From the IMG/VR virus record IMGVR_UViG_3300048574_000519, positions 1 through 60,699 of that record: a DNA stretch of 60,699 nt. One strand, written 5' to 3'. The notes beneath the pieces were generated by a model. The model saw nothing but the letters and a program-made list of their open reading frames with translations, searched no databases and was not told the origin of the DNA. A program made the translations under genes and the position numbers. Positions 2,107 through 15,046 of this stretch are shown one piece after another. Source of the stretch: a virus (taxonomy: Duplodnaviria; Caudoviricetes). Within the stretch, counting starts at the first letter, position 1. Each line of letters starts with the position of its first letter.

Positions 2107-5100
2107 TTATGCCTCGTCGATGAAGTTGGTGAGCGGGGTTCCCGCAAGGTCGATCTGGAACAGGTACTCAGTCATGCCGGCGTACATGGTGCCGGAGCCC
2201 ATGCGGCCGATCACCTTCGTGGCGCCGAGCTCGCTCATCAGCGCCGTGGTGAAGATGTGCCGCGAAATCTTCTTCTGCGTCAGCCATTCGCCCAGGCCGG
2301 CCGAGGAAATTCTCATGAGCTTGTCGTCCATGCCGATGTGGACGTGGATGGCGCCGAGCCGCGAGGCGTCGTGAAGCACCTTGATCGTGTTCGCCGGCGG
2401 CTTGCCCTTGGCGACATGGATACGGTTGGTGGTCAGCGTGTGGAATGACCGCGACGCGCCCAGGAACTGCGCCAGCTGGTGGGTGATGTTCAGCTGCTGC
2501 TTAATGTCGTTCGGCTGCGCCGCCTTGTGGGCTCGAGACTTCGCCAATACGCTCAGGAGGAAGTCCTTTAGCGCCACCTCGTCGATCGCCGTGAGGTTCA
2601 GCTCGTTGGCGTATCGCGCGCCCATCAGGATGACGCCGATCGTCGCCAGCCAGAAGCGCTCCTCTTCGGTGGTGGCGACCTCCTTACCCAGGTCGCTCAT
2701 GAAGGTCGCCATTTCGGCGTCGACACGGGCATGGTTGGCGCCGAGGAACTGGGCGTAGGTCAGCCCCGCATGGCCGTAGTTGTGGTGAAGCGCCGCGATC
2801 ATCCGCTGGGCGGTGCTCGGCTCGATGCGGCCGGCCTGCGTCGTCGGCGGGCGCACGACGAACTCGAACACCCTGTAGAGCCCGGCCGTCGTGGTGACGG
2901 TCCGGTTGGCGACGTAGTCCAGGAGGCTGTCGTTGGAGCAGCTCACCAGGAGCGTCTGCCACTCGCCGAGCTCTCGCTGCTGCGCGCGGGAGTTCATGCG
3001 CGCCTTGCCCTTGCCGCCGGTGGTCTCGAAGACCATGTTGACGAACTTGGCGGTGTCCTCCTCGGTCTTCAGCTCATCCCAGAAGATGGGCAGTGATTGG
3101 AGCTCGCCGATCTTCCCCATCACCGAGTTGTGGGTGTCGCCGAGTGACGCGATGCCCTTCACTGGGTCGCCCCACACGGCCTGGGCGACCTTCAGCGCAG
3201 TCGTCTTGCCGATGCCACTCTCGATCGAATAGGCGCTCATGACGACACCCGAGTGGCCGGTAAACTTCACCAGCGGCGCGGCGAACGCGCTCGCCAGGAT
3301 GGCGTCCAAGTCGGGCCTACCTTGCGAGGTAATCAGGCTCGCGGCCGCGGTCCACGGGGCGACCCCGCCGGTGGGCTCGTACTGGCGGGCAATGACAGTG
3401 TTCGGGTTGGCCGCGGCGCGATTGCCCCCGGGCATCCACAGCTCGCCGCCGAAGACGAACCCCTCCAAACGCCCGGTGCGGTTGGCGTGGCACCACCCGA
3501 AGGGTGACGACGTCACGCTGTCCCGTGTGTCTTGCAGTTTCTTGATCCAGCTCATAACGAACCTCGACACGTTCTCGACGCCGTTGTTACCGATCGGCAG
3601 CATGAGCGCCTGCTCCTGGAGACAGGCGCGCATGCCCATGCCGCCGACGGCTTCGGTTGGCACGAGGATCTGCTTGCTGTTGCCGCGCTCGACCACAGTG
3701 TCGAAGTGGAGCACCCACGGGTCCTTCTGGAGCCACGGGTTGTCCATCCGGTACTCGCAGATCGGGATCAGGTGGTTGGTGCCGTCGGGATCGACCTTGA
3801 GCGCGTTGATCAGGCCCTGTGCATCGCGCACATATCCGGCGGGGAGGTCACTTGCGGATGGAGACCCGGACGCCGGCGTTGGCACCGAACCAAGTGGAGA
3901 GGACGTCGAAGTTGACCCTGTGACCGTCGGCCCAGGCGTCGCGCCAGTGAACGGTTTTGATGGTCCGAACCCGGAAGTTGTTCCGGCTGTCGTAGTCGAG
4001 ACGCTCGTTGGCGTCCCAGTTGGTAACAATTGGGGGCTTGTCGATGGCAGACCGAAGTTCAACGGTGATTTTCCCAACGGGAAGTTCGGGCACGACTGGC
4101 ACTGTGTTGCGCCGGCGGTGCTGATACTCTGACATCTGGGCCATCCAAGATCCAATCTGGCGCGTTCGCGCTGTTTGCGTTCATAGAGTTCGTCGGTGCT
4201 CGCCGGCGTATACCCGGGGTGCCCCGACGCCATGTCGTGCGCATCCTGCGGACCACCGGACGTGAAGGTCGCGATAAGCGTCGTCAGGTTCCACAGCGGG
4301 TTCGGAAGGCTCGCGCCCTTGGTGTTGATGGCGTCGCGGATGAAAGCGCAGTTCACCCCAACCGCCACGAGATCAATGTTCAGGGCTTCGCGCGGCGCGA
4401 TCCCGCTGCTCAGTGCGTTATCGGTGACCGGCGCGCGCCTCGGAAACAGCGAGCTCGGGACGTGAACGTGTGATGGTGTGGTGGTTATATAGGGCGTCAG
4501 GATCTGCTCGATGCGCGCCACGCTGTAATCGAAGTCGGTCTTGGCGCTCGCCAGCTTCACCGGCCGTGGTGTGGTGGTCTTATGGTTGAATGTGTCGGGC
4601 AGGCGCAGCACGCGGACGCTGTCCACGGTGCACTGCGTGTCGCACTTCAAGCCAAGCGCCTTGGTGGCCTCGGCGAGCGCGTTCGCCAGCGGCTGCCATT
4701 CGGGCGGGGTGAGTGCGCGATCGAGCGTCCAGTAGGTGTGCAGGCCGCCGCCCGACGCCACCACAAGGCTCGGCTTCGGCATGCCGCTGCCCTTGAGGAA
4801 CTGCGCCAGGGCCGCGATGGCTGCGTCCATCGAGTCGTAGGAGTTCTTGTCCACGCCCTTGGCGTCGATGTCGAGGAACAGGGACTTGAGCGCGACCGCG
4901 TTCTCGGCGAGCCGGACCGGCGCGTACCACTTGAAGTTCTGGTTTTTCTTGCTGATACGCTCAATGGCGCTGTGCTGCGTCGCCATGCAGACATAGACGT
5001 CGCGGGTGTCAGCTCCACGGAGCGCGAAATCCACGGCCTTGATCGCGTCGTCGACCGAGCGCACGGCGCGGCCGGTCCACGGCAGCAGCTCTTTGCCGTG

Positions 5101-6990: not shown

Positions 6991-9486
6991 TTATTCCGAC
7001 GCCGCCTCGAACAGCTCCAGCAGCCGTTCCTGGACGCGCTGCTTGCCCTCCAGCAGCTTGTAGATCTTCTTCTCCACCGGTGTGCTGCACAGATGCAGGT
7101 AGAGCTGCTTGTGCTTCTGGCCGATGCGTCTGATCCGATGGTTCGCTTGGTCGTAAATCTCCAGGCTCGTCGTCGGTGAGAACCAGATGACCGTGTCGGC
7201 GGCGGTGAGGGTGATCCCGTGTGCCAAGCACTGAGGGTGCGCCGCGATGACGTGAAACTTGTTGGTATTCTGGAAGATATTGAAGACCTCGGCGCGCTTG
7301 CCGGCCGGTGTGTCCCCGGACACCAGCGCGTGCGAGATCTTCGCCTTCTTGAGGGCTTCGCCGATGCCGGCCAGCGCGTGCTTGAACGGCACGAACACCA
7401 GCACCTTGTTGTCGGTCGCCTCGATACCGTCCATGAGCGCCTGAATGCGCTCCCCATTGTCGAGCGCCACTGTGGCGCCCTCTTTGGTGTAGACCCAGCC
7501 GGCGCTGATCTGGAGCAGCTTGCTCATGACCGCGCCAGCGTTGGCCGCGGTGATCTCCTGCGACTGCACGGCGGCGAAGCACTGGTCGGCGATCGCCCTG
7601 TAGACCTTCGCTTGGTTCGGCCCCATATCGACCGTGACGATGTTCATCGGGCTCAGCCCGACCGCCTCGGGCAGCTCCATGACGTCGTCCAGCGTGTACC
7701 TCACGGCGGGTTGAAGCGCCGCGAACGCGCGGTCCACGGCGTCGTGCTTGGGCACGTAGGTGAAGTTGGACACCTTCGTCATCAGTTCGTCGCGGAACCG
7801 GTTGAAGTATTTCGGGACCGTGTGAGGTGTGAGGATGCTGGCCTGCGCCCAGGCGTCGGTCGGCTTGTTGGGGACCGGAGCGCCGGACATGCCCCAGGCC
7901 CACAGCATTCGGGCCGTGAGCTTGCGTAGTGTCTTGGTCCGATTGGTGCCGCCGTTACGGAACACGGCCAGCTCGTCGATCACGAGCGTGTCGATGTCAG
8001 TGCGTGAGACCAGCTCGTCAAAAATCACCTCGATGCCGTCATGGTTGAGGATGTAGATCTCGGCGTCGGGGTCGGCGAGGCGCTGTAGCCGCCGTGTCTT
8101 ATCACCGTGCAGCACTGCGCACTTGCGATGCGGCAGGGTGTTGAAGATCTCCCGCTGCCATGTGAACGTCAGCGTCGACAGCGGTGCCAGCACGAGCAGC
8201 TTACCCGCGAGGTTATTCTTCCGCAGGAAGTCCCACGCCCACAGCGCCGCCTTCGTCTTGCCGGTGTTGCCTGTAGCAAAGATGCTTCCGTTCCTACGGA
8301 GAAGTAGGAACGTGCTCGGCACCACGAAGCAATATTTGAAGCCATCAGTTGATGGCTCGCGGTACACATTGTTGGCAACGATACCGCCGTTCACGCCGTA
8401 GAGGCTGACTTCTGGTTTGATCTCCTTTGCATAGACGCAGTGGTCCGTCTTACCCCCACGTCGCGCCCTATGGGTAAGCGACGCCCGGCGCCCGGCCGCG
8501 CTATATGCGTATTGGATGAAGTCAGCGTCGGCTTTTGTGTAGGAAGAGAACGACCATCCGCTCGCCTTGCGGAATGACCCGTCCCAATACGTCGCTTCGT
8601 CAGCGACGACCTCTAGTTGGGCCTGCGACGCAGTCCACCAACTATCATCGAACCCCTTGGTGGCTGGAGCGGCGAACGTGAACCGGGTAAATCCGGCCGG
8701 GGCACATGGCTTTTCTGTAAAACGCACCCCCGCCGCAGTGAGTAGCGCCCGCATTCGCCCGATCTTGCGGGGTTTCTTCAGCCGCACAGCAACTTTGCCC
8801 CAGCTGGCATGTTCGTGCGCGTCAGCGTTAACCGCGACCTGTAGTCGGATCTCGGCATCCGACATAGCCAGGCCAACAGTCCCAACCACCTTGAAGGTAG
8901 TTAGAAACTTGAAGTCTCGACTTGCGCGCGAGCCGTATTTCGCCTCGATATACTCTGCGCTGACGACACGCCCATCAGCCAGGAGCACACGGTGCTCGGG
9001 CGAAAGCAACTGGTCCACCCCCCGTGTGGTCTTGAACCGGATCATTTCCACGCACGGCAATTTGACGAATTGCTGCGGCGCGACGAATTCGATTGACTTG
9101 GTCGTGGGAAGGTATTGGGCGACTTCCCCACCAGTGTAGTCAGCGATCCTCTTCCACCCGGTCGGGGATAGATACTCCGTCTCGGAGTCCACACACCCCA
9201 TCCCGTTCAGCACGTAGGCTCGCGCCGCCGCGGTCAGCATTGCGCATGTCTTCTTCTGCACGGAGAAGGGCGTCCCGCCCGCCCAGTCGTAATGGCACAG
9301 GATCGGGCTCGGCGCGTCGAAGCCTAGTTTCCTGAGCATGTAGGTTTCGGCGGGCTGATGCGGAACGAGTAGGTACGGCACGCCGCCGCTCACGAGGCTT
9401 TTGGCTTCGGGGAACAGCGTCTGTACTGCCGGGGCGAAAGGCACGCCCAGCAGCTTGTGCCGTGTACTCACCTGAACTGACTGCAT
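6991..9486 (-). CDS. SNF2-like (SF2) helicase, intein-containing
   Basis: Walker A NGMG|TGKT split by an intein; LVIDE; GMSGAP; HGITLTAAD; QANHRIRRIGQ. Confidence 0.9.
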   Translation of the reverse strand: MQSVQVSTRHKLLGVPFAPAVQTLFPEAKSLVSGGVPYLLVPHQPAETYMLRKLGFDAPSPILCHYDWAGGTPFSVQKKTCAMLTAAARAYVLNGMGCVDSETEYLSPTGWKRIADYTGGEVAQYLPTTKSIEFVAPQQFVKLPCVEMIRFKTTRGVDQLLSPEHRVLLADGRVVSAEYIEAKYGSRASRDFKFLTTFKVVGTVGLAMSDAEIRLQVAVNADAHEHASWGKVAVRLKKPRKIGRMRALLTAAGVRFTEKPCAPAGFTRFTFAAPATKGFDDSWWTASQAQLEVVADEATYWDGSFRKASGWSFSSYTKADADFIQYAYSAAGRRASLTHRARRGGKTDHCVYAKEIKPEVSLYGVNGGIVANNVYREPSTDGFKYCFVVPSTFLLLRRNGSIFATGNTGKTKAALWAWDFLRKNNLAGKLLVLAPLSTLTFTWQREIFNTLPHRKCAVLHGDKTRRLQRLADPDAEIYILNHDGIEVIFDELVSRTDIDTLVIDELAVFRNGGTNRTKTLRKLTARMLWAWGMSGAPVPNKPTDAWAQASILTPHTVPKYFNRFRDELMTKVSNFTYVPKHDAVDRAFAALQPAVRYTLDDVMELPEAVGLSPMNIVTVDMGPNQAKVYRAIADQCFAAVQSQEITAANAGAVMSKLLQISAGWVYTKEGATVALDNGERIQALMDGIEATDNKVLVFVPFKHALAGIGEALKKAKISHALVSGDTPAGKRAEVFNIFQNTNKFHVIAAHPQCLAHGITLTAADTVIWFSPTTSLEIYDQANHRIRRIGQKHKQLYLHLCSTPVEKKIYKLLEGKQRVQERLLELFEAASE
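8266..9195 (-). mobile_element. Intein (310 aa) with a LAGLIDADG-like endonuclease domain in helicase Walker A
   Basis: Begins CVDSETEYLSPTGWKRI, has LSPEHRV (block B), VAVNADAH and YWDGS, and ends IFATGN|T. Lower GC than its flanks. Confidence 0.9.
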
Positions 9487-9766
9487 GGAGAAATTCCTCA
9501 AGAGCGGTCGTGTCGCCGTCGATCACGAAGACCACGCCGCCGGCGGCGGTGATCTCCTCGATCATTTTTTCCTGGCGATCAGTGGGGTGCTTGCCGGGCG
9601 CCTTCGTCTCGACAGCGCAGAACAATCCGCGGAAGCAGAACAACACGTCGAGGCTGCTGATCCCATACCCGCTCGGCACGGGCATGAATTTGTAGATCGT
9701 GCCCGTGTCGACGTAAGGCTTGAGAACGCGCGCGACCTTGGCTTTGACCTTGCCCTCGGGGGTCAT
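9140..9766 (-). CDS. VRR-NUC family nuclease
   Basis: MTPEGKVKAKV...GYGISSLD...AVETKAPGKHPTDRQ...AGGVVFVIDG. The domain is ~95 aa; the ORF then runs on, overlapping the helicase. Confidence 0.85.
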   Translation of the reverse strand: MTPEGKVKAKVARVLKPYVDTGTIYKFMPVPSGYGISSLDVLFCFRGLFCAVETKAPGKHPTDRQEKMIEEITAAGGVVFVIDGDTTALEEFLHAVSSGEYTAQAAGRAFRPGSTDAVPRSQKPRERRRAVPTRSASARRNLHAQETRLRRAEPDPVPLRLGGRDALLRAEEDMRNADRGGASLRAERDGVCGLRDGVSIPDRVEEDR

Positions 9767-12084: not shown

Positions 12085-14916
12085 CTAATGGGCGTCGCCA
12101 TATGACGGCCCACTACCTACTTCTGCGGCAAGTGGAAGATCTGGCGCCCAGCTGGGCCGCCGTGACATCTCCTCCAGCAAGAGCGATTTCACTTCGTTGG
12201 CCCGGCGGCGGGGAACGCAGTAGACCAGTTCGTCGTGAGCTTGGAGCCCGAGCTTAAGTCCACGCGCCCTGATGCGTGATGACGCTTGGGAAACCGCTAC
12301 TCGCGCGAGAAACTGGACAATATTCTCCAATAGCTTACCGCCGTAGATGCGCTTCGGCTTGCCTCCATAGGTGAAACACCACTCGCCGATTGCTTCGTCG
12401 AAGTGGAGGTCGTGGTAGTGGAGCGCCAGCCCGTTCGGGCCTGTGATGGTTTGGTGTGTGATGGTGCAGGGGCCAAACGTGGCCGTGCCGCCGTTCGCCA
12501 GGACGGGGAGTAGGTTCTGGAGCGTCTTCCAGGCGGTGGAGATCGCGAGGTACCGGCGACGGTAGCCGTTAACGATACGCGCGGCTTCAGCCTCGCCCAG
12601 CTCGATGGCGGTGCCAGTCTGCGCCCGGGACAGCAGCTTGACTGTGGCGTCGAACTTGGGTGCCCCACAGCCGAAACCCAGCTGGAGGATGCCGGTCTTG
12701 CCGATGAACCCGTGCGCAGCGTGCTGGCCGTCCTTGCGCTTGCGCTCGACCTTGTAGCCGAAGATGTCGGACGCGAAGTTGGAGTAGACGTCGGCGCCGT
12801 CGGCGAACTCCTTGACGAGGTCCCATTGCCCGCACACCCAGGCGGTGACGCGCGCCTCGATCTGCGAGGCGTCCACTGAAAACACGTCGTCGTCGGGGTC
12901 GATCGGGATGAGTGCGCGCCGAAGCGCGTTGCTGCCGCCGCGGGTCGGCAGGTTCTGCATGTTCAGCTTCCAGTCGCCACTATTGTGGACAATCCGGCCG
13001 TTTGCCATGAACCTGTTGTGGGGACCGCAATCGACTATGTCCCACGTCGGGACGACGAGCGGTTCTGTGCCTGCTGCGCTTTTGTCGCCCAACGGAGATT
13101 GCCCGGCTCGTAATGTCCGTTCACCTCGATCCTGTCGATCGATGCTCCTACTGGCCGGCTCCCTAAGTTGGCCAACAACCAGTCCGCCATGAACGCGGTC
13201 GATGGAAACCTGAACTCGATCCCCCTGCCGCCGTAGTAATGAAAATTCGATGCCCCCGGGTTTGTGCACCGTTGATGTGCCCGACTGGCCACCTCCATTG
13301 CAATCCCCCATTCTTTGGGGGGCCATTTGGCGCTCAGAACTTTTACTTGAGCCCTCGTCGACCGCTTCTCCAACGGAATTGAAAACGCAGCAAGGATGGA
13401 TCTCTGGCGGCGCGTCAAAGAATTCTCCTTGTTCGCTTGGGTGGCCGCGTCCAGCATTGCCTGAGAGGGCGCTACCCCGACCATCCGGAGCACCATGTTG
13501 CAGTGGCGGCACAGTATTTGGCGTCGGCCAAGAAGATCCTTCCACCGGCTCTGCATATGCTTGCCGCACCGGGAGCAGGTGAATTCGATCGCCGTGTTGT
13601 AGGTGATCAAGCCGCCGCACAGACGGATCGATCCGTGTTGCGTCAGGAACGTTTCCACGCGCGATGTCGTAGCCTCGCGCTTTTGCTGCCTCCAGCTGAC
13701 AATACCCGTGTTCCACGGTCCAAACTCGGTGGTCGGGTGTTCCGACGATCCCGTCATATTCAATGACTTCCTTAACGCCGGCGAACGATAATCCCCCGTG
13801 GGAAACGAACATGTCGCCATCCCAAACAAGGTCATCATCCCGGAGATTATCTAACGATGTAGATACTAACCGGTTAGAGCGCAATACTTCTATGCTGGTG
13901 TCCCCAGCCAAGCAAAGCCGGTGTGTATGGGCGCCAGCGACACGCAGCGGCACGGGCATACAGCCGTCGAGCCGTGGGTTACCCGGCCAGGTAAGGTCGG
14001 AGATCGAGATCATCCGCTGCGCCCGGGACTCAGCCAGCGTCGACTTGTGGCCGAGGCGGGCGGCGACGAACGCTTGGACGCGCGGGTCCTCGTGCTCCTC
14101 CAGCTCGATCATCGCCTCGTCGGTCTTGGCGAACGCGTAAGTCTCCTTGCCGGTGGTCTTGGAGATCTTCAGCGGCGGGTCGACGTCGACGCTGCGCAGC
14201 AAGTCAGCGAACTTCTCATTCGACATCAGGTCCTTCGTGCTGTTCACCCCGTAGAGCATCGCGTTGGTGAGCAGCAGCTCCTTGTGCTGCTGCACCTCGT
14301 CGAGGTGTTCGGCGAGCAGCTGCTTGTCGAGCTTGAACTTCGGCTCGATCGCGCACCTGATCACGGTGTCAGCAAACACCAGCTCCTCGGTCGGATAGAT
14401 GCGCGAGTGGACGAGCTCCTTGAAGATGCCAGCGCAGAGCCTGACATCCTGAAGCGCGTAGTCGATGAACCCAGGCATCAGGCCGGCGGCGCGGATCATC
14501 GCCGCGGTCATGCCCTTGACCTTGATGATGGCGTCGCCCTTGACGCCGAGTCCCAGGTGTTTGGCGACGCTCGCGAGCGAGCAGCTCCGCAGGAGATGTC
14601 CCAGGCACGAGCGGGAAACGCTCAACGTGCAGACGAACAGCTCGGGGATGAAGTGGAAGATCCACGCCACGAGGCACATATCAAAGAGTGCGTTGTGTGA
14701 GACCAGCATCACGCGCTCGCCGCTGGCCTTGAGACGAGCGAAGAACGCCGGCAGCTCGGGACCATCGAGCCAGTAAGGCTCGCCGTCGAGCCCCTCCTGG
14801 ATGGCGCATCCGATGCACTCGAAGCGGGGATCGAGCACATACTCGACTGGTGTGATTTTTCGGAGGGAGTATTCGTCGTCGTAGTAAGTTTCGAAGTCGA
14901 GAAAAACGATCTTCAC
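12085..14916 (-). CDS. Family A DNA polymerase with 3'-5' exonuclease domain, intein-containing
   Basis: FLDFETYY and HNALFD exonuclease motifs; THRL|SG..NMQNLP; DASQIEAR (motif A); GKTGILQLGFG (motif B); AHDELV (motif C). GTG start. Confidence 0.93.
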   Translation of the reverse strand: MKIVFLDFETYYDDEYSLRKITPVEYVLDPRFECIGCAIQEGLDGEPYWLDGPELPAFFARLKASGERVMLVSHNALFDMCLVAWIFHFIPELFVCTLSVSRSCLGHLLRSCSLASVAKHLGLGVKGDAIIKVKGMTAAMIRAAGLMPGFIDYALQDVRLCAGIFKELVHSRIYPTEELVFADTVIRCAIEPKFKLDKQLLAEHLDEVQQHKELLLTNAMLYGVNSTKDLMSNEKFADLLRSVDVDPPLKISKTTGKETYAFAKTDEAMIELEEHEDPRVQAFVAARLGHKSTLAESRAQRMISISDLTWPGNPRLDGCMPVPLRVAGAHTHRLCLAGDTSIEVLRSNRLVSTSLDNLRDDDLVWDGDMFVSHGGLSFAGVKEVIEYDGIVGTPDHRVWTVEHGYCQLEAAKARGYDIARGNVPDATRIDPSVRRLDHLQHGDRIHLLPVRQAYAEPVEGSSWPTPNTVPPLQHGAPDGRGSALSGNAGRGHPSEQGEFFDAPPEIHPCCVFNSVGEAVDEGSSKSSERQMAPQRMGDCNGGGQSGTSTVHKPGGIEFSLLRRQGDRVQVSIDRVHGGLVVGQLREPASRSIDRQDRGERTLRAGQSPLGDKSAAGTEPLVVPTWDIVDCGPHNRFMANGRIVHNSGDWKLNMQNLPTRGGSNALRRALIPIDPDDDVFSVDASQIEARVTAWVCGQWDLVKEFADGADVYSNFASDIFGYKVERKRKDGQHAAHGFIGKTGILQLGFGCGAPKFDATVKLLSRAQTGTAIELGEAEAARIVNGYRRRYLAISTAWKTLQNLLPVLANGGTATFGPCTITHQTITGPNGLALHYHDLHFDEAIGEWCFTYGGKPKRIYGGKLLENIVQFLARVAVSQASSRIRARGLKLGLQAHDELVYCVPRRRANEVKSLLLEEMSRRPSWAPDLPLAAEVGSGPSYGDAH
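12982..13914 (-). mobile_element. Intein (311 aa) in the DNA polymerase
   Basis: Begins CLAGDTSI, has GTPDHRVW (block B), and ends TWDIVDCGPHNRFMANGRIVHN|S. Removing it restores THRLSG. Confidence 0.92.
13035..13838 (-). CDS. HNH homing endonuclease in the +1 frame, entirely within the polymerase intein (true start uncertain)
   Basis: QRCTNP...YYGGRGI...SIDRIEVNGHYEPGNLRWATKAQQAQNR, plus CSRC and CRHC Zn motifs. Confidence 0.88.
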   Translation of the reverse strand: MMTLFGMATCSFPTGDYRSPALRKSLNMTGSSEHPTTEFGPWNTGIVSWRQQKREATTSRVETFLTQHGSIRLCGGLITYNTAIEFTCSRCGKHMQSRWKDLLGRRQILCRHCNMVLRMVGVAPSQAMLDAATQANKENSLTRRQRSILAAFSIPLEKRSTRAQVKVLSAKWPPKEWGIAMEVASRAHQRCTNPGASNFHYYGGRGIEFRFPSTAFMADWLLANLGSRPVGASIDRIEVNGHYEPGNLRWATKAQQAQNRSSSRRGT

Positions 14917-15046
14917 GAGCGCGCCTCGTTGACTACCGGTTACCCCGGGGTTACATAGGGCGCACGGCTGCACAGGCCGTGCTCCAGTGGGTGGAGCGTT
15001 GCGGGCGCAGCGGGTTGGTGGTTCTTCGCGCTGCGCCCGATTTCAT

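Follow-up and report, generated by a model that had tools for sequence, protein, structure and literature searches.

The stretch of DNA analyzed here is the 60,699-nucleotide (nt) virus record IMGVR_UViG_3300048574_000519 (Duplodnaviria; Caudoviricetes), which at its full length we call the window and which is a complete 60.7-kb provirus. Its family A DNA polymerase gene (polA) contains an intein, and inside this intein a nuclease gene lies in a different reading frame. The polA open reading frame (ORF) occupies positions 12085 to 14973 on the minus strand, as do all features of this locus, and it has 962 codons from the listed GTG and matches PF00476 with an E value of 2.7e-20. The polymerase frame runs unbroken through the intein as a single ORF, and a database protein of 943 amino acids (P0001) is identical to it. 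P0001 is recorded on 7 contigs, the longest of which (542,987 bases) fits a prophage within a bacterial chromosome.

The polymerase intein and its nested nuclease gene

The intein spans positions 12982 to 13914 and comprises 311 codons of the polymerase frame, from Cys1 (TGC, 13914-13912) to Asn311 (AAT, 12984-12982). It separates an N-extein (13915 to 14973) that ends with ..GAHTHRL from a C-extein (12085 to 12981) that starts with SGDWKLN. The marks of a class 1 intein are present, namely, an N-terminal Cys, a TxxH block B, and a C-terminal His-Asn followed by Ser. Its sequence blocks read CLAGDT at the start, TPDH inside, and ..NGRIVHN at the end, before the Ser, and C1, H62 (in the TPDH of block B), H310, and N311 are invariant in 17 intein sequences. 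An initial annotation, made from the letters of this DNA, had described a 311-residue intein with normal splicing blocks at both ends, and CLAGDT, TPDH, and HN|S were each verified.

In a structure model of the polymerase-frame intein, residues 1 to 93 (13636 to 13914) are predicted to fold as the N-terminal splicing domain, with a pLDDT score (predicted local distance difference test) of 70 to 89, and residues 284 to 311 (12982 to 13065; ..TWDIVDCGPHNRFMANGRIVHN) correspond to the C-terminal splicing domain (pLDDT of 65 to 78). Between them lies a stop-free read-through linker, residues 94 to 283 (13066 to 13635), which is the polymerase-frame translation of the nuclease gene and has a pLDDT of 23 to 33. 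When this model was searched with Foldseek, the 21 best among the matches listed were inteins, including Ssp DnaB, gp41-1, and Npu DnaE, at E values of 0.025 to 0.44, none of them at or below 0.001. Against Pfam, the intein frame matched neither an intein family nor a motif for its center, and against PHROG it matched one family of unknown function, through its N-terminal part only. The center had been called stop free and motifless in the polymerase frame by the initial annotation, and it indeed has 0 stops in 195 codons and no Pfam match.

The same DNA is open in the +1 frame. The longest open stretch in that frame is 13838 to 13035 (267 amino acids from its first ATG), and the nuclease gene within it (13035 to 13757) runs from the ATG at 13757-13755 to the TAG at 13037-13035 and encodes 240 amino acids. 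Its TAG sits within the codons for W-D-I-V-D of the polymerase frame, so that the ORF coordinates and the stop at WDIVD given by the initial annotation were confirmed. The encoded protein contains a four-cysteine zinc ribbon (C61, C64, C83, and C86; 13500 to 13577), which is nearly invariant and gives weak zinc-ribbon matches. Toward its C terminus lies the nuclease core, residues 163 to 237 (13047 to 13271), with the pattern RCxNP..YGGRGI..SIDRI..N.HYEPGNLRWAT..Q..N and a predicted strand-strand-helix arrangement. In an alignment of 63 sequences (A2), 12 columns are invariant (R163, C164, Y175, R178, D208, R209, Y216, G219, N220, R222, W223, and N232), among them the loop Asn (N220) and the helix Asn (N232) of the HNH motif.

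Residues 185 to 264 of the +1 ORF match three PHROG HNH endonuclease families, phrog_3377 (6.5e-20), phrog_374 (9.4e-18), and phrog_8790 (6.4e-17). Against Pfam, the same ORF matched no HNH family at an E value of ≤0.1 and had no Endonuclease_7 match, and no precomputed Pfam domain was found in 120 proteins of the nuclease family among the matches listed. The family itself is large, with at least 6,806 database proteins at an E value of ≤1e-5, and tblastn with the nuclease core gave matches in 838 phage records. A model of the 240-residue protein built on the A2 alignment has a mean pLDDT of 92.7, with a predicted N-terminal helix (residues 14 to 40), the four-cysteine ribbon, a helical middle, and a core made of two strands (206 to 209 and 221 to 224) and a helix (226 to 237). 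A Foldseek search of the PDB with this model returned nothing at an E value of ≤0.001, and a profile search of PDB sequences returned weak zinc-ribbon matches only. From its sequence and its model, we describe the protein as a zinc ribbon joined to an HNH-like core, with putative catalytic activity. The initial annotation had seen a clear HNH endonuclease here and had suggested a profile scan of both frames; the PHROG families on the +1 frame and the fold topology agree with it, but neither frame has a Pfam HNH match and the general-base His is missing.

About 120 nt at 13636-13757 thus code simultaneously for predicted folded parts of two proteins, intein residues 53 to 93 (block B included) and the N-terminal helix of the nuclease, which is of interest for the study of overlapping genes. 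The same two-protein overlap is also found in the split relatives described below.

Contiguous and split relatives

A word-based protein search with the polymerase-frame intein as the query retrieved 13 further polymerases in which one ORF spans 100% of the intein at 39 to 50% identity and 3 more whose middle is shorter or missing; P0013 and P0017 are mini-inteins. When the inteins were aligned, the polymerase-frame middle was poorly conserved save for patches that lie exactly over the nuclease-frame motifs. The DNA of relatives was then collected from IMG/VR (2 loci) and metagenomes (80 loci), which together with the window gave 83 rows. A scan of genome contigs for relatives produced 38 pattern matches, none of which was confirmed, and a DNA search of a phage collection with the region produced no match. 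The three forward frames of each locus were compared with the window's N-extein, intein N-block, intein C-block plus C-extein, and nuclease core.

The nuclease was present in 70 of the 83 rows, and in all 70 it lies at +1 to the intein N-block; in no row does it lie in the intein frame. The initial annotation had named homologues with the nuclease always in frame as evidence that would speak against its description, and this count is the opposite. By layout, 12 rows are contiguous like the window (the window and loci L002 to L012, 9 distinct sequences), and 57 are split and contain the nuclease, their C part being in frame +2 in 52 and in frame 0 in 5. One row has the nuclease on a contig that ends before the C part, 8 are split without this nuclease, 1 (L028) is a contiguous mini-intein, and 4 are too short to classify. 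The 11 contiguous contigs besides the window come from separate metagenomes and share its 0/+1/0 layout at 42 to 50% polymerase identity.

In the 57 split loci, the upstream polymerase ORF ends 92 to 125 codons into the intein, and the nuclease ORF begins within the region that codes for the intein N domain. The C-terminal intein half (IntC) has an ORF with its own ATG in 51 distinct split loci (typically MLVPVYDI..), preceded by a Shine-Dalgarno (SD)-like word in 41 of the 51. IntC has a median length of 26 amino acids, and the median overlap of its ORF with the 3' end of the nuclease gene is 20 nt. Thus, most relatives are fractured polA genes, in which a free-standing nuclease gene stands between the halves of a naturally split intein, and the clade of the window is a read-through version of this arrangement. 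The contiguous dual-coding intein described by the initial annotation stands, but the fractured genes with split inteins that are its nearest relatives had been missed. An intein-less allele was found in the polA gene of Rhizobium phage RHph_TM3_14A, which encodes a continuous host protein across the junction GGAHTHRL|SGDWKLN.

Several loci depart from these layouts. L049 and L050 are 99.8 to 100% identical except that L049 has lost its nuclease core to a 461-nt internal deletion (2891-3351 of L050), both of its split-intein halves being intact. In L047 (and also in L048 and L062), about 1.2 kb separates the intein halves of a split polA, and this nuclease is absent; an ORF of L047 (3281-3610) matches an endonuclease VII PHROG (phrog_1035, 2.1e-08), which suggests that a different endonuclease gene took over the polA locus.

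A second polA intein site, after ..GKT, holds a paralogue of the nuclease in a shifted frame (L003:3771-4544, L016:3096-3764, L028:2131-2964, L030:3656-4321, L031:3803-4570, and L033:3361-4179). The shift is +1 in L016 and L030 and +2 in L003, L028, L031, and L033. The polymerase frame across it has 0 stops in 5 of the 6 loci (probability of zero stops in shuffles, 0 to 0.036), and L033 is split there, with 2 stops.

Selection, translation start, and alternative explanations

Selection in the two frames was examined in 8 distinct contiguous sequences (28 pairs) over about 200 codons, from VETFL.. to ..QNR; the duplicates L006, L010, and L012 and the core-deleted L011 were omitted. In the nuclease frame (+1), amino acid identity was 0.56 and the ratio of nonsynonymous to synonymous differences per site (pN/pS) was 0.44, with pS near saturation in distant pairs and values of 0.14, 0.23, and 0.26 in the three closest pairs. 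The polymerase frame (0) had an identity of 0.33 and a pN/pS of 1.16, and the unused frame (+2) had an identity of 0.35 and a pN/pS of 1.09. At the first, second, and third positions of nuclease codons, there were 0.36, 0.32, and 0.55 differences per site, respectively. The GC content of third codon positions (GC3) was 0.84 and 0.79 in the two exteins, and in the intein middle it was 0.51 when read in the polymerase frame and 0.71 when read in the nuclease frame.

The 195 codons of the window's nuclease region, free of stops in the polymerase frame, contain 8 in the third frame, and 1,000 synonymous shuffles of the nuclease codons produced a mean of 3.5 polymerase-frame stops, with a probability of zero stops of 0.008. 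The polymerase frame is free of stops in 12 of 12 contiguous rows (mean in the third frame, 6.75), where shuffles led us to expect 2.2 to 7.4 stops with probabilities of zero between 0 and 0.05; across the nuclease region of split loci, it has 4 to 39. Given the frame-wise pN/pS values, GC3, and stop counts, the nuclease is therefore the selected protein, and the polymerase frame is selected only to stay open. Over the nuclease gene, that frame evolves like noncoding sequence, and it is predicted to be disordered. Purifying selection on the +1 frame and avoidance of stops in frame 0 were among the checks that the initial annotation had proposed, and both bore out its description.

We place the predicted start of the nuclease at the ATG at 13757-13755, which arises from the intein codons for Tyr-Asp (TAT GAC). 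A candidate SD-like word, AAGGAAG (13767 to 13773), stands 9 nt upstream. The Tyr codon TAT, which makes this ATG, accounts for 4 of 18 Tyr codons in the exteins, a weak hint. A promoter and terminator scan of 12900-14300 found nothing beyond chance on the minus strand upstream of the ATG. Among 54 distinct split loci, the first ATG of the nuclease ORF has an offset of 187 in 16 and of 157 to 163 in 21 (offsets are as printed, one less than the true 1-based positions). The position of the window ATG is itself the first nuclease ATG in 10 of the 54, usually behind GAGGT. The window ATG is homologous to a nuclease start of these split loci, in which the nuclease can be translated only on its own, and the candidate that the initial annotation had put near 13760 is this codon.

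Within the contiguous class, an ATG occurs at offset 157 in 4 of the 9 distinct sequences. At offset 130, L003 and L009 have an ATG, and L002, L007, and L008 have a TTG that follows GGAGG by 8 nt. Each of the 8 intact contiguous nuclease genes thus has an ATG or a TTG at one of these two offsets, 130 or 157; the core-deleted L011 has a GTG only. An alternative start, the nuclease-frame GTG at 13656 to 13658, is conserved in 9 of 9 distinct contiguous relatives. We rejected this conservation as evidence, since its bases are fixed by a Val of the nuclease frame together with an Arg-Gly of the intein frame and are therefore uninformative on start use. The GTG near 13657 that the initial annotation had offered thus exists, at 13658, and is conserved, but for reasons that say nothing of a start. 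Moreover, the predicted helix at residues 14 to 40 spans this GTG, which argues for a start upstream of it.

From these data, we consider it likely that the locus is a nuclease gene nested at +1 in a class 1 intein of polA, which is split in most relatives and read through here, with the linker as a by-product. The anatomy of the locus, its conservation in relatives, and the selection pattern in the two frames were all observed, and on these the finding is well supported. Under this interpretation, a class 1 intein would sit in the phage family A polymerase at ..THRL|C...HN|SGDW.., and a free-standing gene of the homing endonuclease type (zinc ribbon plus HNH-like core) would be nested in it in the +1 frame. 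In most relatives, the same gene would stand between the halves of a naturally split intein and so fracture polA, and in the clade of the window, the polymerase frame would cross it without a stop to give one contiguous intein. The 190-residue middle of that intein would then be a by-product that the nuclease gene leaves in the polymerase frame, disordered and able to vary freely so long as no stop arises. Internal initiation at ATG 13757 would probably yield the nuclease, the polymerase precursor would splice in cis despite its long linker, and the nuclease, by cutting alleles that lack the element, may spread it. That the nuclease lies out of frame inside an intact intein and needs its own start, as the initial annotation had read the locus, is supported by the layout of relatives, by selection, and by the homology of the start.

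Several observations weigh against this interpretation. In addition to the saturation of pS in distant pairs, overlapping frames bias pN/pS. The nuclease start is not conserved across the contiguous clade, and the SD-like words derive from conserved intein codons, so that selection for ribosome sites is not required to account for them. That the nuclease is translated within an ORF which is itself translated is our inference. Among the public sequencing runs listed with the stretch, none was an RNA run, and one run that may be RNA gave 0 matching reads in about 1 in 100 of its reads, a share too small to bear on expression. L011 and L012 (about 2690-3041) are contiguous loci from which the nuclease core has been deleted, leaving a 118-codon remnant, and in which the polymerase frame is still open; they look like a decay stage of the element. 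The nucleases of contiguous loci are also without a C-terminal tail of about 45 residues that is present in those of split loci.

The catalytic assignment has its own difficulties. In the HNH_3 motif, the catalytic general base is a His at the end of the first strand. At the expected position, this family has an Arg, in a D208-R209 pair that is invariant in 63 sequences, and a nearby His (H215) is not invariant; we therefore call the nuclease HNH-like rather than canonical HNH. Pfam HNH_3 was matched by 3 of 63 family members, with a best E value of 0.0021. In a wide structural search of 48,161 chains, the best match was the HNH restriction enzyme PacI (3m7k_A), weakly, with a Z score of 5.2 and a root mean square deviation of 4.0 over 86 aligned residues. 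PacI is not known to have the canonical His. With an Arg in place of the His, rare HNH_3 matches, and a weak PacI match, catalytic activity is putative.

A different explanation for the +1 frame is that the nuclease gene is an untranslated relic, so that the locus is a mini-intein with a junk linker over which the +1 frame has not yet decayed. Decay does occur in this family, as shown by the deleted cores of L011 and L012, the 461-nt deletion in L049, and the mini-inteins P0013 and P0017, and both the inferred status of nuclease translation and the variation of the start codon among relatives would suit a relic. However, the window ORF is intact, with all 12 invariant columns and the four cysteines kept, and no stop interrupts the nuclease frame over 267 codons of DNA in which the third frame has its 8. 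Purifying selection within the contiguous clade, close pairs included (pN/pS of 0.14 to 0.26), also argues against decay. We consider a relic unlikely.

Programmed +1 ribosomal frameshifting could instead yield a fusion of N-extein, intein N part, and nuclease with no separate initiation. Such a mechanism would accommodate a nuclease frame that is already open at 13838, farther upstream than any good start, a shift of +1 in 70 of 70 rows, and the step of frames from 0 to +1 to +2 in 52 split loci. However, in split loci an ATG of its own begins the nuclease ORF, as another begins the IntC ORF behind an SD-like word (41 of 51), and separate initiation is therefore the rule in the family. In L004, L005, and L003, the upstream stop of the nuclease frame lies just before the ATG, which leaves little room for a shift site. 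Judged by these starts and stops, frameshifting appears very improbable.

Finally, a sequencing or assembly artefact, in which two compensating indels hide an ordinary in-frame HNH intein, is refuted in practice by the 11 separately sampled contigs with the 0/+1/0 layout, by the 13 database polymerases that span the whole intein in one ORF, by the absence of any in-frame nuclease in 70 loci, and by a polymerase frame that is open beyond chance in every member. Other public runs contain only small shares of the window, and the check on the sequence itself rests on short contigs from those runs, a point in favor of this explanation. These contigs, of 151 to 158 nt and from two wastewater studies, cover 12921-13071, 12930-13086, and 13646-13796 and match the window at 99% identity or better, differing from it by one substitution and by no indels. 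Because they span both places that a hidden frameshift would need, they count against an indel artefact, and the statement in the initial annotation that a frameshift error cannot explain the locus holds.

Known systems and direction of change

In the preprint of Gosselin, Arsenault, and Gogarten (bioRxiv 10.1101/2025.01.02.630785), actinophage inteins are described with antisense LAGLIDADG or Vsr-like endonucleases and with an endonuclease VII-like gene in frame 3, and invasion of the intein by a free-standing endonuclease gene is the proposed origin. The window shares with these a contiguous intein with splicing blocks in the extein frame, a structureless in-frame middle, and an endonuclease ORF in another frame. 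Unlike their same-strand case, the endonuclease VII-like gene in frame 3 of actinobacteriophages, the gene here encodes a zinc ribbon plus an HNH-like core at +1. A further difference is that the host gene here is a family A polymerase of a phage whose closest cultured relatives infect Rhizobium, and homologous split versions exist at the same site; the inteins of the preprint do include a DNA polymerase class.

In cyanobacteria, a dnaX intein whose endonuclease occupies an overlapping frame has been read as a secondary invasion of a mini-intein (bioRxiv 10.64898/2026.09.14.751524); its host gene is cellular, whereas the gene here belongs to a phage. With out-of-frame and antisense endonucleases already described in inteins by these two preprints, the architecture, which the initial annotation did not know as a standard one, has in fact been reported. 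An out-of-frame endonuclease in an intein is a recently described and rare arrangement, to which the present locus adds a homologous split-to-contiguous series at one site.

Fractured genes, in which a split intein has a free-standing endonuclease gene between its halves, were described by Dassa et al. (2009; PMC2677866) with GIY-YIG and Vsr-like endonucleases in gp41, NrdA/J, IMPDH, and DnaE. The 57 split relatives are arranged in exactly this way, down to an endonuclease 3' end that overlaps the beginning of the IntC ORF, but their nuclease family differs and polA is not among the hosts listed in that paper. The window shares with the Dassa systems a separate endonuclease gene between intein blocks B and F, but its polA is unfractured, with one ORF reading through. 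In the Dassa model, a contiguous gene is restored with the endonuclease in frame (step IIIa); here, it is read through in another frame. In canonical HNH inteins, the nuclease is likewise inserted between block B and block F but is part of the intein polypeptide, whereas here it is a separate gene product in 70 of 70 rows.

In the case of the ShiLan domain (Arsenault et al. 2025, PMC11855218), a phage methylase gene free of any intein encloses an HNH gene that is out of frame. The two cases have in common a hidden HNH gene in an alternate frame, a stop-free host frame with a predicted loop, and a nuclease whose translation route is an open question. They differ in that ShiLan has no splicing domains and its read-through stays in the mature protein, whereas here the intein would remove it. 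A literature search of main texts turned up no earlier description of a family A polymerase intein, fractured or read through, that contains this nuclease family; supplementary tables may list one.

The direction of change was examined in two trees. In the first, a quick IQ-TREE tree of exteins from 48 of the 83 rows (short exteins and 7 rows failing the HN pattern were omitted), the contiguous class forms one side of a branch with a Shimodaira-Hasegawa-like approximate likelihood ratio test (SH-aLRT) value of 100. For the second, we added the intein-less polA genes of Rhizobium phage RHph_TM3_14A and Pseudomonas phages Rollin and KPP25 and omitted the long branches L068, L064, and L073. The intein-less Rhizobium allele falls inside the contiguous clade with a support of 100, which may be a sign of mobility or loss, and the contiguous mini-intein of L028 sits within a split clade with a support of 99. 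With KPP25 polA as the root, the base of the tree is a polytomy of the contiguous clade and four lineages that hold split loci, one of which also holds the intein-less Rollin allele. Parsimony mildly favors split as the older state. A firm direction between split and contiguous was rejected on account of this basal polytomy, and because the root is a long branch and the elements are mobile, we leave the direction open.

A joint reading of these states, which we put forward only tentatively, is that the contiguous clade is either a split intein rejoined by out-of-frame read-through of the endonuclease gene, that is, gene fission reversed by overprinting, or an intermediate ancestral to the split polA inteins. 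One site would then present a homologous series of five states: an allele without the intein, a mini-intein, a contiguous intein that hides a nuclease, a fractured gene, and a fractured gene whose nuclease has decayed. Read-through would also have arisen at the second polA site, in frames +1 and +2. With the contiguous and the split form both present at a single site of one gene family, how split inteins arise or revert becomes testable. If splicing is confirmed, the intein tolerates an unconstrained linker of 190 residues. For protein engineering, the relatives supply dozens of naturally split inteins whose IntC is about 26 residues long. The endonuclease is missed by gene callers that do not allow long overlaps on the same strand, and close homologues of the nuclease are stored as separate proteins almost only on short contigs (about 1 kb).

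The nearest cultured relatives are Rhizobium phages RHph_TM3_14A, TM27A, TM27B, and TM29 (about 60.9 kb), with 48.6% identity to the window's N-extein; the record inspected, that of RHph_TM3_14A (L084; MN988472.1, 31630-33540), is the intein-less polA. Elsewhere in the window, the helicase ORF (6994-9522) contains a 329-residue intein-like insert at 8212-9198 on the minus strand. The in-frame endonuclease that the initial annotation had ascribed to this insert was not borne out: the insert has no Pfam match, and its sole PHROG match, silent on an endonuclease, is PhoH-like (phrog_32482, 4e-48). It divides the Walker A region of the helicase (..GMG|C....GN|TGKT).

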